Of a stretch of 37,590 bases of DNA, positions 518 to 6,802 are shown piece by piece. The position numbers were made by a program, and so were the translations under genes. The DNA comes from Candidatus Bathyarchaeum sp. (GTDB taxonomy: Archaea > Thermoproteota > Bathyarchaeia > Bathyarchaeales > Bathyarchaeaceae). The notes below the pieces were generated by a model. That model did not search any database. It saw only the letters and a list, made by a program, of their open reading frames with translations, and was not told where the DNA came from. The stretch spans positions 1-37,590 of the forward strand of contig JAOZIF010000080.1 in NCBI GenBank assembly GCA_026014495.1. The letters are read 5' to 3'. The stretch's first letter is position 1. Every line of letters begins with the position of its first letter.

Positions 518-826
518 TTGGAAAATAAAAGAAAGAAAAAAATTTGTTTTACATTAGTAAGAACACTTGATGGAAAGTATGTGCTCGATACTGAGAAATG
601 CCGTTGGGCACAGATTAAAAAGTTTGATTTAGGTATTGAAGATGTGGAGTTTGAAATTAAAGATAGTTACGTTGTATATGCCTCTAAATTCAACTCTGAA
701 TATGCCGAGAAAGATTTGTTTTCATTATCTCCTGCAGAAGAAAAGATAGCAGATGACTTAGCTAAAATGCTTATCGTCATAAAAAAACGTCATCCAAATC
801 TATTTAATTCTGGTAATAATGACTAA
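518..826 (+). CDS. Hypothetical protein, 102 aa
   Basis: Starts 3 nt after the AbrB-like stop and overlaps the next ORF by 8 nt, an operon-like packing. No recognisable motif. Confidence 0.65.
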   Translation: MENKRKKKICFTLVRTLDGKYVLDTEKCRWAQIKKFDLGIEDVEFEIKDSYVVYASKFNSEYAEKDLFSLSPAEEKIADDLAKMLIVIKKRHPNLFNSGNND

Positions 827-1823
827 TATATTGCTCGAAGTTGGAAGAATAAACGTGACGAAAAAGACACAACAGAAAGAACACGGAGATGTTTTGAGGT
901 TAGTAGATTGTTTAGAAAATAAAGGTGTTTTTCTGTCTAAAACCGTGATTGAGTTTGCTTTGGCTCTTTTTGGAGATACTTATAGAGAAGAATTTGGCTC
1001 ACTAATTTTCGCTTCTGCCTGTATCTATGTTTCAATGAATGTTAATGAATGTGTTGTTTCGATGAATACAAAGACTTTTTTAAGAAAAATTGGGTTGAGT
1101 AAACGGTTTGAACGGAAATTTAATCATCATTATCGAAAAATTCTTTCAAAATATAAACTAACGCCAAAAAAGTGCAATTTTGGGATTGCTGCGTCTGTTA
1201 GTTATTTTTGTGATACTTTAAATTTCTCAAAAAGGCTTAAAGGATTTGCATTGAGATTAGCTATAGAAGTTGAAGCTAAAAGGTTACATGTTGGCAAATC
1301 GCCTTCTGCTGTAGCTGCTGGAGTAGTATATATTGCGGGAGCTATTCCTAATAATCGTGATTTATGTATTAGGCAGTTAGACATTAAAAAAATCAGTGGA
1401 GTTTCTACAGTTACAATAAGAAACAGAAGTCAAGCTATTAAACGAAAATTGGGAAATTATATTGAATGTTTTAGAGCCGTCTATAACAAGCCTTCTGTGG
1501 ACCAAAAACAGGTTGAGGAGATTTTTGAACCTGAATTTTTTGGTGATTCTAGAGAACGAAAAGATGTAACTTGTGAAGCAGCGAAAGCATTAGACAAAAC
1601 TTGGGAAGTTTCCTTGATTGAAGCAGGTTTTCCAGTTATCTTTGGTTATTGGGATGAAGAATTTTTAGCGAATAAAGAGAGTCATAAACAAACGGATGGT
1701 ATTCGTGTTAAATATTCTTTCGAGATTGACGTTAAAGAAAAAGAAGAAGAGTATATGTTATTTCACAGTGAGGGTAACGTTACGTCTAACGATTCTAAAA
1801 AGTCTAAACAATCAGAGAAGTAA
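819..1823 (+). CDS. TFB/TFIIB-like cyclin-repeat protein lacking the Zn ribbon, with an unknown acidic C-terminal domain
   Basis: GKSPSAVAAGVVYIAG...IRQLDIKKISGVSTVTIRNR matches the second cyclin repeat and BRE-binding HTH of TFB. FASACIYVS resembles a degenerate first repeat. No CxxC pair at the N-terminus. Confidence 0.75.
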   Translation: MTNILLEVGRINVTKKTQQKEHGDVLRLVDCLENKGVFLSKTVIEFALALFGDTYREEFGSLIFASACIYVSMNVNECVVSMNTKTFLRKIGLSKRFERKFNHHYRKILSKYKLTPKKCNFGIAASVSYFCDTLNFSKRLKGFALRLAIEVEAKRLHVGKSPSAVAAGVVYIAGAIPNNRDLCIRQLDIKKISGVSTVTIRNRSQAIKRKLGNYIECFRAVYNKPSVDQKQVEEIFEPEFFGDSRERKDVTCEAAKALDKTWEVSLIEAGFPVIFGYWDEEFLANKESHKQTDGIRVKYSFEIDVKEKEEEYMLFHSEGNVTSNDSKKSKQSEK

Positions 1824-3333: not shown

Positions 3334-4782
3334 TTACTCTACGTGTACTCTGAAGAGGTCAATGTCTTGCGCCATTTCTCGTGTGCTCTTTAAGAACTCT
3401 CTTGTTGCCCTCTCTACGTCTTTGGATTGTGTTATATATCGTCCGACAATGATGATGTCTGCCCCGTTTGCCAACGCTTCAGGTGCAGTCTCTGGAGTTA
3501 TCCCGCCAGCAACTGCCACCAAACATTTCTGGTTCTGGAATGTTTGTTTCATCTCTTTGATTATGTCCCAGCGTGTTTTACCTGTTTTTTCAGCATCTAT
3601 GGCGCGATGTAGTATTGCAACATCAGGCAATTTTTTGAGTGAACGCAGTTTTGCTATGGGATCGTCAACGTTCATTAAATCCATTATCGCGTAGATTCCT
3701 AGCCTTTTTGCTTCCTTTATGAATTTGTCTATGGTCTCGGTTGTTGCCAAACCAGCAACTACAACTGCATCGGCTGTTTCCTCAAATGCCATGTCAACTT
3801 CTACTTTTCCAACATCCAGTGTCTTCAGGTCAGCTACAATGAACATGTCCTTGGCAACTTTCCTCAAATCGCGGATGACGTTTACTCCATACTTTTTCAG
3901 CAGAGGTGTGCCAACTTCTAAGATTATTCTGTCGCTCTCTGGTAGTTCAGCTACGATTCTCTTAACGCCCTCCAAATTAGGATTGTCCAAAGCTATTTGC
4001 AAGTAGGGTGGTCTCCATAAACGTGGCACTTTAAAGCCCATTATCGGATGCTTTGCGCGGTCTTTGTCATACATGATTTTATCTAACGACGGATAGTTAT
4101 CTAAAGCCCTTGACAGCGCCAGTTTTGTTGCTCCATAATTATAATGATAGATACTTCGGTAGTCTTTAGCCTGAGGATGAATAAAGACGCTACAAACAAT
4201 TACCCAATCATCAACTTTATCCCACGGAATAACTCCTTCCTCAACAGAATCCGCAACCGCCTTTGCAACAGCTGCCTGAGCAGGACCAAAAATCTTTCCC
4301 GTCTGCTCCATATTCTTCACAGTAACTTTTGGCACAATAAGCGTGTGCGGTTTAGGTGGAAGATTTGGACGTATAACTGCCAAAAGCGGAGTGTGCCCTG
4401 CAGATAAATTCGACAAACCGTTAGCAAAAGCAGTTCCAACAGGGCCGTCTTTGTCACCAATCAGCAAATCCACGTGGGCAACCTCTGTTCCCTCGCCCAT
4501 TAATGCCTCGCCAATCAAATATGTGGATTCTTTGCGTTTTGCGGCTCCTTCAAAAAGCAGATCCCTTTCATCTACATCCGAAAAGTCAACATCAAACTCT
4601 CTCATCCACTGATACAGCGTGTCACGGTGAATTCCCATGATGTCCGCTGTGCCCTTGATTGTCGGTTTAGTTGACCTGCTCCCCCGTGATCTTCTTAATT
4701 GTCTTTCTTCTTTCTTAGCTGTCGCCAGCAATTTTGTGAATTCTTCTCTTGTTTCCGGTTTTTTACCGTCATATCCCGACAC
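3334..4782 (-). CDS. fae-hps: Bifunctional formaldehyde-activating enzyme / 3-hexulose-6-phosphate synthase with an extra N-terminal HTH domain
   Basis: Fae: [53 protein letters not shown]. Hps: [35 protein letters not shown]. Residues 1-87 precede the Fae start and contain [23 protein letters not shown]. Confidence 0.93.
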
Positions 4783-4920
4783 AATATCACTCTCAATGAG
4801 AGCATTTCACTGACCATATATAAAAATGTGTCGGAGCAAATACTGAAATATGTGATGAATCCGACACTTTTTAGAAACAACTCTTTTTCAGAAAGAATTT
4901 TTTCGGCATTTTTCTGTCGG
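4776..4920 (-). promoter_or_regulatory. fae-hps promoter with TATA box, palindrome and TGTCGG repeat array
   Basis: Minus-strand TTTTTATATAT at about 4816-4826. Palindrome CTCTCA-A-TGAGAG at 4790-4802. TGTCGG/CCGACA copies at 4776, 4829, 4861 and 4915. Confidence 0.55.
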
Positions 4921-5090: not shown

Positions 5091-5237
5091 TTATTTTGAT
5101 CTGTGGTTCTTTTCTTCGCGCCTTCTTTTTTCGTCTACTGCTTCACGTATCCATTCTGAAGGCTTACCAACAGTCTTCAAATATTTAAGCTGGTCAGAGG
5201 TCAGGCGTACTCCGTAGTGGAGTTTTCGTTCACTCAT
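5091..5237 (-). CDS. Small ribbon-helix-helix (CopG/Arc-like) protein, 48 aa (absent from the ORF track)
   Basis: Hand translation: MSERKLHYGVRLTSDQLKYLKTVGKPSEWIREAVDEKRRREEKNHRSK. An alternating beta strand (YGVRL), a helix, then S-E-W-I-R-E-A-V is the typical RHH pattern. ATG at 5237, TAA at 5091. Confidence 0.75.
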   Translation of the reverse strand: MSERKLHYGVRLTSDQLKYLKTVGKPSEWIREAVDEKRRREEKNHRSK

Positions 5238-5458
5238 ATCGGTTGCACCACTTAAATCGATATTGAAAATAAAGAAAAGTTTTATGAAATCAAAATATTG
5301 ACTTATACTACAGTCACTTCTTCATGAAACTGTCGGCCAAAAACCTGTAGCTAATGGCGCGGTTGCTACGGTTTTCATGTGAAGAAATATAAATAAGTGA
5401 CGCAATGCTCAGAAAGCAACAAAGTGCCCTGAAGGAAATGTTTGGAGGAAAGCGGGCG

Positions 5459-6802
5459 ATGGAAGATAACTTCTTGAAATTAGCTCTAGGCTTAATAAAA
5501 TCCAGCGAAGACCATGAACGTTACCGTGGAGAAGAGTGCGTAAATCTGATTGCAAGCGAGGGACTCAAATCTCCTGCAGTAGATGAAATGCTAAGTTTGT
5601 CAAAAGACTTGGAATCCAGATACGCAGAGGGAGAAAACGATCTTGCGGGACATGTCAAAGCACGGCACTATCAAGGTCAAAAATTCATGACAAAAATTGA
5701 GGACTACTCAGCCGATTTGATGAAAAACCTGTTCGGTTGTGATTGGTCTGACGTTAGACTTGTTTCTGGTACCCACGCAAATCTTGCCACATTCAAAGGC
5801 ATTTCGTTGGCTACAAAAAATAATCGGATGGTTGTTTTGCCTCTCAGCGCTGGGGCTCACATTACTCACGACTACTCTGGTTTAGCCGGTAAAGTGTTAG
5901 GATTAGAGACTATCAACCATGCCTACAATATAGACGAACTAAACATTGACCCCGAAAAATCTGCAACCATAATCGACGCAGCTAGACCTGGCATCGTGAC
6001 TTTTGGAGGAAGTGTATTCCCGTTTCCGCACCCAGTTAAAGAACTGGCAACAGTTGCTAAAGAAACTGGCGCCTACGTTGTTTATGATGCAGCTCATGTC
6101 TTGGGCTTGATTGCAGGCGGAGAATTCCAAGACCCCTTCGGAGATGGAGTGGATTTCATAACTGCGTCAACTCACAAAACATTTCCAGGACCACAAGGTG
6201 GAGTTATTCTCGCAAACTGTGAAGATGAACGAATGAAAAAAGCAATAAAAAAGGTTCAGCATGCAGTTTTTCCGTTGAGTGCTTCAAACACTCATCTTGG
6301 ACGACTTCCTGCATTGGGCTTGGCTGCATTGGAGCTAAAACTGTATGGTAAAGAGTTAGCTAAACAGACAATTAAGAATGCCCAGACTGCGGGCAAGTGC
6401 CTGTTCGAGAGTGGCGTGAAGGTTTTGGGACAGAAAAATGGTTTCACGTGTTCTCACCAAATCACTGTTGATGTTAGAGAGTATGGTGGTGGACAGAAGC
6501 TTGCGTTTAGTCTTGAGGATGCTCATATTGTTATGAACAAGAATCTTTTGCCCTATGATAACCAGCATAATCATGGCGATCCTTCGGGGCTTCGTATTGG
6601 TTTTCAAGATGTGACCCGCAGAGGATTCAAACCCAAAGACATAGAGTATCTGTGCTCCTTGATTTTGGATGTTGTGAAAGCCAACAGGACTCCCGAAGAA
6701 GTACGAAAAGATGTCATCAAATTAAGGCAGAGCTTTAAGGAAATCAAGTACGGTTTCCAAAGTGTTAGTGAAGCAAAAGAGCATCTTAGTAAATATGTTT
6801 AA
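5459..6802 (+). CDS. glyA: Serine hydroxymethyltransferase, archaeal type
   Basis: NLIASE, RYAEG, YDAAHVLGLIAGG, TASTHKTFPGPQGG (PLP lysine), NKNLLP and SGLRIG motifs. ATG at 5459 follows GGAGG; the ORF track starts at 5405. Confidence 0.95.
   Translation: MEDNFLKLALGLIKSSEDHERYRGEECVNLIASEGLKSPAVDEMLSLSKDLESRYAEGENDLAGHVKARHYQGQKFMTKIEDYSADLMKNLFGCDWSDVRLVSGTHANLATFKGISLATKNNRMVVLPLSAGAHITHDYSGLAGKVLGLETINHAYNIDELNIDPEKSATIIDAARPGIVTFGGSVFPFPHPVKELATVAKETGAYVVYDAAHVLGLIAGGEFQDPFGDGVDFITASTHKTFPGPQGGVILANCEDERMKKAIKKVQHAVFPLSASNTHLGRLPALGLAALELKLYGKELAKQTIKNAQTAGKCLFESGVKVLGQKNGFTCSHQITVDVREYGGGQKLAFSLEDAHIVMNKNLLPYDNQHNHGDPSGLRIGFQDVTRRGFKPKDIEYLCSLILDVVKANRTPEEVRKDVIKLRQSFKEIKYGFQSVSEAKEHLSKYV

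Follow-up and report, generated by a model that had tools for sequence, protein, structure and literature searches.

A predicted helix-turn-helix domain fused to the bifunctional enzyme Fae-Hps in Bathyarchaeia probably controls the enzyme's own gene

Why should a bifunctional metabolic enzyme begin with 87 residues that the same enzyme in methanogens does not have? The question is raised by a gene on a 37,590-nucleotide stretch of Candidatus Bathyarchaeum sp. DNA (assembly GCA_026014495.1, contig JAOZIF010000080.1, positions 1 to 37,590 of the forward strand; hereafter the window). The gene occupies 3334..4782 on the minus strand, from a GTG start at 4782 to a TAA stop at 3334-3336, and encodes a 482-amino-acid protein in which an N-terminal domain and a linker precede formaldehyde-activating enzyme (Fae) and 3-hexulose-6-phosphate synthase (Hps). 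An in-frame TGA (4807-4809) lies eight codons 5' of the GTG. A preliminary description of the locus, made from the letters of the window alone, proposed that the extension is a helix-turn-helix (HTH) with which an oligomeric enzyme binds a repeat array and regulates one-carbon (C1) genes. We find that the extension is best read as a three-helix HTH, tethered by a disordered linker to Fae-Hps, and that it most likely controls the gene that encodes it.

The first step toward an answer is to ask where the enzyme begins. Canonical methanogen Fae-Hps, which has been characterised in Methanosarcina barkeri, begins at the Fae domain. The NCBIfam model for bifunctional Fae-Hps, NF009833, aligned to residues 88-481 of the window protein at model positions 2-390 of 392 (614.7 bits, cut-off 274), so that residues 88-482 match the whole 392-position model. 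Because model position 2 aligns at residue 88, the 87 leading residues are extra, which agrees with the count given in the preliminary description, and here they are predicted to make up a folded domain plus a linker. The Fae domain (residues 88-248; 4039..4521, minus strand) matched PF08714 over residues 90-248 (E 5.9e-72) and PDB 1y5y (E 1.3e-44). The Hps domain (residues 259-482; 3337..4008, minus strand), which has the orotidine monophosphate (OMP) decarboxylase fold, matched PF00215 over residues 259-462 (E 3.3e-37), TIGR03128 and Hps chains in the PDB, and both Pfam matches were above threshold. Many columns of the catalytic part are invariant across 57 sequences, from which both enzyme activities are predicted. 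The chemistry is presumed to be that of the methanogen enzyme: Hps releases or fixes formaldehyde with ribulose 5-phosphate (Ru5P), and Fae condenses formaldehyde with tetrahydromethanopterin (H4MPT). The host is a Bathyarchaeum-like archaeon of the class Bathyarchaeia and not a methanogen, and its assembly (2.19 Mb, 196 contigs, 93% complete) holds one Fae copy. Many other genomes of the order also carry a second Fae paralog of about 492 amino acids (L102:1089-2564, L109), in which an aldolase of the dihydrodipicolinate synthase (DHDPS)/DapA family (PF00701, E 1.7e-82) is followed by a C-terminal Fae; this paralog is absent from the window's genome.

Is the extension a real part of the protein? 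It could instead be an annotation artefact or a dead remnant, with the upstream frame open by chance or left over from a fused upstream gene, and with translation starting at an internal TTG (codon 89) or ATG (codon 95). The window's TTG does stand at the usual position of a Fae start, and the start of the long frame is GTG rather than ATG. We compared both features across relatives. Of about 100 loci, nearly all have a start codon placed exactly 51 codons ahead of an invariant histidine (His52), in a continuous frame, and this upstream start is ATG in many relatives, in several of them straight after a stop codon. The internal TTG, on the other hand, is not kept. It is absent in most relatives, some of which lack any start codon in the vicinity of the Fae start, and no internal start of any kind is conserved. 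Inspection of the window also revealed no Shine-Dalgarno (SD)-like sequence ahead of the TTG, as the preliminary description had remarked, whereas relatives share a promoter and an SD-like element ahead of the long form (see below).

The extension is also widespread and constrained. We counted 165 database proteins of about 480 amino acids that carry it, at 48-88% identity, and 338 stretches encoding it in species-representative genomes. The records are titled Candidatus Bathyarchaeia, Bathyarchaeota or Bathyarchaeum, the complete genome of Ca. Bathyarchaeum tardum is among them, and the source databases name the proteins only "bifunctional enzyme Fae/Hps". Within the order the extension is present in 130 of the 201 genomes sampled, and by family it occurs together with Fae: both are found in f1, f2, f3 and f6-f9, and neither in f4, f5, f10, f11 (0/47) and f12. 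Beyond this order, a single genome of the class, belonging to another order, was found to carry it. In the alignments, residues 2-67 are conserved, about 20 variable residues follow that differ among homologs in sequence and length, and then comes the Fae start, YLIGEAL. Residues P9, T41, G44, H52, R53, D54, T55, L56, Y57, W59, F63 and F67 are invariant in the 57-sequence set. The ratio of nonsynonymous to synonymous substitution (dN/dS; Nei-Gojobori, same-length orthologs) was 0.11 over residues 2-67 and 0.40 over the linker, and the enzyme domains had values of 0.04 (Fae) and 0.05 (Hps); these figures are rough because dS is near saturation.

Natural variants bear on the same question. In L107 (G064:C5) and L108 (the second copy in G108, G108:C58) the HTH has been cleanly deleted; in both variants the start is unchanged, and the 8-10 residues that follow from it (MSGTEVKKPE... 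and MSEFEVKK...) are joined to the Fae start. The upstream start is thus retained where the domain is gone. Three apparent split forms were set aside. G001 is cut by a contig end; L104 (G031:C54) is what remains of an HTH, ending in TAG, and the sampled search found no Fae in its genome; and L105 (G102:C13) is a second copy with the HTH region shifted to another frame. It is possible that L104 and L105 are pseudogenes or assembly errors. From these comparisons we conclude that the N-terminal domain is translated from the upstream GTG and is under purifying selection, and we regard an artefact or dead remnant as very improbable.

What does the domain look like? We modelled the N-terminal domain (residues 1-67; 4582..4782, minus strand) with AlphaFold2 from the 57-sequence alignment, both alone and in the full-length protein, with the same outcome. 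Three helices were predicted at residues 12-33 (4684-4749), 42-49 (4636-4659) and 53-63 (4594-4626), all on the minus strand, with predicted local distance difference test (pLDDT) values of 85-91, and the third is the predicted recognition helix. The variable linker that follows (residues 68-87; 4522..4581, minus strand) had pLDDT values below 50 in both models and is predicted to be disordered. When the domain was compared with 48,161 chains using VIA-align, the top 50 matches were all HTH DNA-binding domains. The best was sigma-28 region 4 (Z 5.8, rmsd 1.7 over 50 residues), and others included TetR N-terminal domains, AraC-type domains and the NtrC1 DNA-binding domain; such Z values indicate the fold class and not the family. 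The domain is basic, with a net charge of about +4, and contains a basic stretch. These models are consistent with the HTH fold claimed for the extension in the preliminary description.

The family is a different matter. All matches to Pfam HTH models over the region of residues 41-64 were below their cut-offs: HTH_28 (E 5.6e-4, 20.4 bits, cut-off 25), HTH_23 (18.1 bits, cut-off 24.6), HTH_17 (15.0 bits, cut-off 27), HTH_Tnp_1 and GP3_package. The preliminary description had assigned residues 41-63 to a Fis-type HTH, and although the sequence there reads as it said, the Fis assignment did not hold up (HTH_8, E 0.057, 13.6 bits, cut-off 22). An exhaustive profile search of 1.84 billion representatives returned almost only N-terminal fragments of the same fusion, mostly contig-end pieces, and a feature search of the ESM Atlas with residues 1-72 gave no usable match. 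The domain is essentially specific to the Fae-Hps fusion. Two candidate free-standing homologs with their own stop codons, P0138 and P0141, were rejected; they lie on contigs of 623 and 719 nucleotides (nt) and closely match the N-terminal ends of family f6 fusions, from which they seem to derive by truncation. The closest relatives by sequence that are not part of the fusion, found as more distant profile matches, were tandem-HTH repeat proteins and phage terminase-small-subunit-like proteins with VHRDTLY.W..EF in common. P0143 and P0146, which are weakly related to the domain, each consist of seven tandem HTH units about 50 residues long (AAKAE.LYR.NKLT..EIAKKLGI...TLY.YL). The best local resemblance, P(T/S)I.G.A..L.(V/I)HRDTLY.W..EF, is to the HTH of phage small terminases (Pfam GP3_package) and to those of IS3-type transposases. 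The scores for these are below threshold (E 0.016, 15.8 bits against 29.4), the context is wholly different, and nothing resembling a mobile element surrounds the gene.

That all HTH matches by sequence and by fold are weak, and that three-helix bundles are a common arrangement, would also suit a protein-protein or oligomerisation module, for example one that docks Fae-Hps to another H4MPT-pathway enzyme, in which case any repeats in the promoter would be unrelated to it. Against such a module stand the top 50 structural matches, which are all DNA-binding HTH domains. As described below, an unrelated classical DNA-binding fold also occupies the same position in other orders, and domain and promoter repeats vary together. 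We therefore consider a role in protein contacts alone to be quite unlikely.

If the domain is an HTH, to what would it bind? The control region of the gene itself contains a conserved array of CCGACA/TGTCGG sites. The TATA box, TTTTTATATAT (4816..4826, minus strand), lies 34-44 nt 5' of the GTG, close to the 35 nt first estimated, and at a fixed distance from the start in 57/57 non-redundant loci. The SD-like sequence GAGAGTGAT (4786..4794, minus strand) is a conserved block in 26 aligned upstream regions, and its position 4-12 nt 5' of the GTG (-12..-4) is conserved in the Bathyarchaeum family. A proximal site, TCCGACAC (4828..4835, minus strand), in which CGACA is conserved, lies 2 nt 5' of the TATA box at the position of the TFB-recognition element (BRE). 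Its inverted partner, GTGTCGGA (4860..4867, minus strand), lies at -84, and the two together form a perfect 8-bp inverted repeat with a 24-nt spacer, which is unique in the genome. A distal CCGACA (4915..4920, minus strand) lies at about -137, where relatives instead have TGTCGG at about -126, and a further TGTCGG (4776..4781, minus strand) covers codons 1-3 (GTG TCG GGA). The sites of the array stand on both sides of the TATA box and of the mRNA start.

The array is conserved across the order. CGACA was found 2-4 nt upstream of the TATA box in 57/57 non-redundant loci. Additional copies stand at positions that are conserved but depend on the family: f1, f6 and others have inverted copies (TGTCG at -84, and another at about -126), and f9 has a direct one at about -103. 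Over -160..-1 of the 57 loci, CGACA occurred 155 times, compared with a mean of 11.9 and a maximum of 45 for 29 5-mers of the same composition. Without the TATA-adjacent copy the count was 90 compared with 8.4, and a distal copy was present in 56/57 loci. The site over the start codon leaves its mark on codon choice: Ser2 is encoded by TCG, followed by G, in 53/57 loci, whereas TCG accounts for 15.7% of the 922 other serine codons of the same genes. CCGACA is not a general BRE, because only one of the 1378 TTTWATA sites in the 2.19-Mb genome carries it; that one is the single occurrence of CCGACA-N2-3-TTWWATA, and nowhere else in the genome do copies of the hexamer cluster between genes. The motif-plus-TATA pattern occurs once or twice in each of five other genomes and marks the HTH-fae-hps promoter in four of them; two extra matches in other genomes were discarded as lying inside coding sequence or being isolated. 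The six sites upstream of P0138 (L113) are not independent evidence, because that promoter is homologous. A repeat array had been postulated for the enzyme to bind, and one does exist, in the gene's own promoter.

Does the array go with the domain or only with the gene? We made three comparisons. The first uses the deletion variants. L107 has CCGGCA next to the TATA box, TCA as codon 2 and no distal copy, and L108 has none of the sites, with TCT as codon 2. The second uses plain Fae-Hps genes of about 400 amino acids in other orders of Bathyarchaeia, from which the array is absent. The third uses a different fusion. In other Bathyarchaeia orders, Fae-Hps carries another N-terminal extension of about 55 amino acids, MSEEKGLIRAPGRIT.EQY.FLEELV..G.Y.SVSEAMRAA, which is found in f21 (4/4), in many f24 genomes and also in f15, f18, f33 and f34. 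This extension is a ribbon-helix-helix (RHH) by its Pfam match (RHH_1, 25.9 bits in L152, cut-off 20.5; near threshold in others), and RHH-Fae-Hps occurs in about 31 of 301 sampled genomes of the class (loci L149-L172, e.g. L152:39-272:-). In the promoters of 23 RHH-type genes, GTGACAC occurs 42 times, compared with 0.52 for 300 7-mers of the same composition, with a copy at about -135 and a GTGACAC-N6-GTCACA pair just 5' of the TATA box. GTGACAC is absent (0 copies) from the HTH-type promoters, in which CCGACA/TGTCGG occurs 125 times. All three comparisons say that the CCGACA/TGTCGG array belongs with the N-terminal domain. Autoregulation predicts just this, that the promoter repeat changes when the DNA-binding fold changes, and such a joint change is hard to explain by an unlinked factor.

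An unlinked factor nevertheless has to be weighed. The HTH may bind DNA while the CCGACA repeats serve as the operator of some other transcription factor. The domain could, for example, tether a formaldehyde-trapping enzyme non-specifically to the nucleoid and so guard DNA against formaldehyde coming from Hps or from the breakdown of methoxy-aromatics. The basic stretch and net charge of the domain would suit such a role, as would the fact that no regulon was found beyond the gene's own promoter. Bathyarchaeia have also been proposed to handle the formaldehyde of lignin-derived methoxy-aromatics through Fae, and a part in formaldehyde detoxification has been suggested for this Fae (PMC10321748). 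Non-specific binding, however, would not need a recognition helix that is invariant across the order. The repeat type moreover tracks the domain type, CCGACA with HTH and GTGACAC with RHH, and the sites decay where the HTH is deleted. On balance we think it unlikely that the repeats are the operator of a separate protein.

How might an HTH on an enzyme act on such widely spaced sites? We propose that residues 1-67 form an HTH, that a disordered stretch of about 20 residues links it to an otherwise normal bifunctional Fae-Hps, and that this HTH binds the CCGACA/TGTCGG sites. Fae is a homopentamer, and the Fae structure 1y5y was deposited as 10 chains in 2 entries, with five chains per PDB entry. 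Because an oligomeric enzyme would hold its HTHs on flexible linkers, sites 32-54 bp apart could be occupied together, and several HTHs of one oligomer would thus reach sites two to five helical turns apart. The picture of an oligomeric enzyme displaying several HTHs, put forward in the preliminary description, fits both the linker and the Fae structure. The Fae domain also matched residues 120-286 of PDB 8ub7_B, a 290-residue chain named Avd (E 1e-44; 9 entries, 45 chains), which may be a Fae-containing pentameric fusion. Since the sites include one at the BRE position and one that covers the start codon, binding would most likely block TFB/TBP or RNA polymerase, and the enzyme would repress its own synthesis, as PutA and BirA do.

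Several points weigh against this explanation. Residues 1-90, when scanned, reach no Pfam HTH gathering threshold, Foldseek found no match in the PDB at E <= 0.001, and Z 5.8 falls within the range of common helical arrangements. HTH-deleted variants number only two. The TATA-adjacent site is altered in two loci that bear the HTH, to CCGGCA in L114 and to CCGATA in L130, and because of this the mutated TATA-adjacent site of L107 alone proves little. Related loci are not independent samples, and the evidence is comparative throughout. Another, unlinked factor could bind the repeats. The choice of repression over activation is a guess from where the sites lie, and binding may instead activate the gene. 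The domain, finally, has no cysteine for direct sensing of formaldehyde. Taking these points with the evidence above, we still judge it most likely that the HTH-bearing enzyme controls its own gene.

Could the enzyme also report on its pathway? Enzymes that regulate their own genes provide precedents. PutA of enterobacteria is a trifunctional enzyme and autorepressor with an N-terminal RHH domain; BirA combines an HTH with biotin ligase and NadR an HTH with nicotinamide mononucleotide (NMN) adenylyltransferase, and RbkR is an archaeal riboflavin kinase-regulator. Two features of such autoregulating fusions are found here, a predicted DNA-binding domain and an enzyme in one polypeptide, and specific sites in the gene's own control region to which the domain would bind. 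PutA resembles the window protein in having a small N-terminal DNA-binding domain on a bifunctional metabolic enzyme and short repeated sites in its own control region, and RHH-Fae-Hps of other Bathyarchaeia orders has the same class of DNA-binding fold as PutA. The enzyme domains, however, are unrelated, the window protein has an HTH and not an RHH, its DNA binding is predicted, and the switch of PutA consists of flavin reduction and membrane binding, for which no counterpart is shown here. BirA, NadR and RbkR share with it an N-terminal HTH fused to an enzyme of the regulated pathway. Their HTHs, in contrast, are winged helices and their enzymes differ, and the oligomer here is probably larger, with sites two to five helical turns apart instead of a compact palindrome. 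In those proteins the ligand state of the enzyme sets DNA binding, a feature that could be carried over to Fae-Hps by analogy.

Such ligand control is attractive by analogy with PutA, BirA and NadR: occupancy of the enzyme domains by formaldehyde/H4MPT or by Ru5P/hexulose 6-phosphate (H6P) might alter DNA binding. Formaldehyde responses are known from HxlR of Bacillus subtilis, an activator of the hps-phi operon from the HxlR/MarR-like winged-helix family. It is similar in being a transcriptional control dedicated to a hexulose-phosphate synthase gene. It differs in being a separate protein with formaldehyde-sensing residues of its own, whereas the present domain is without cysteine, and no HxlR/MarR-like family was among the Pfam matches to residues 1-90 at E <= 10. 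We put forward only tentatively, as a doubtful but possible extension of the autoregulatory reading, that Bathyarchaeia Fae-Hps is a metabolite-sensing transcription factor as well as an enzyme, in which formaldehyde flux would set transcription directly, and that this coupling was valuable enough to evolve at least twice, with HTH in one order and RHH in other orders.

Does the protein act on other genes? Control of C1 genes beyond its own had been suggested, and the comparisons did not bear this out. One candidate was a TGTCGG at 5331-5336, upstream of glyA, which encodes serine hydroxymethyltransferase (SHMT; 5405-6802, plus strand). It is not kept in 22 related loci, one of which has a TGTCGG at a different position, and neither this comparison nor a genome-wide search for hexamer clusters found a second target of the repeats. 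Directly before its start codon, glyA has its own strongly conserved block GAAGAAAT(A/G)TAAATAAGTGA(C/G)G, which suggests that its leader is very short or absent. Between fae-hps and glyA lies a 48-amino-acid open reading frame (ORF; 5091-5237, minus strand), which was a candidate RHH protein; it is present at 71-94% identity in 41 of 110 related loci, and it has no Pfam RHH match. We rejected its product as the binder of the repeats, since the ORF, like glyA, neighbours fae-hps only in the genus and close relatives, and the repeats are order-wide. Elsewhere in the window, 819-1823 (plus strand) encodes a 334-amino-acid protein with one weak TFIIB repeat match (E 7.7e-10), which has no counterpart in the related loci fetched.

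What is new in this arrangement is not the principle. Enzyme-regulator fusions are known already; the Fae-Hps version, judging from the sequences compared here, occurs widely in one of the major classes of archaea and arose with two predicted DNA-binding folds. Neither full-text literature searches nor the B. tardum genome paper yielded any mention of Fae-Hps with an HTH or RHH attached. Bathyarchaeia rank with the most abundant archaea of anoxic sediments, and to our knowledge almost nothing is known of gene regulation in the class, which has only one cultivated representative. One consequence is for annotation: gene models that start Fae-Hps at the Fae domain are corrected, and in hundreds of genomes a third domain goes unmentioned in the name "bifunctional Fae/Hps". 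If the autoregulatory reading is true, the locus would provide a regulator and its operator in a form tractable for experiments: a single protein, and some 150 bp of promoter DNA that contain defined 6-bp sites. The sister orders would provide a second, independent pair, RHH with GTGACAC, enabling swap experiments, and L107 and L108 would serve as ready-made natural controls. Fae-Hps of Bathyarchaeia would then be a natural case of an enzyme gauging the pathway in which it works and, should the metabolite-sensing reading also prove true, the first formaldehyde- or C1-responsive regulator described in archaea.

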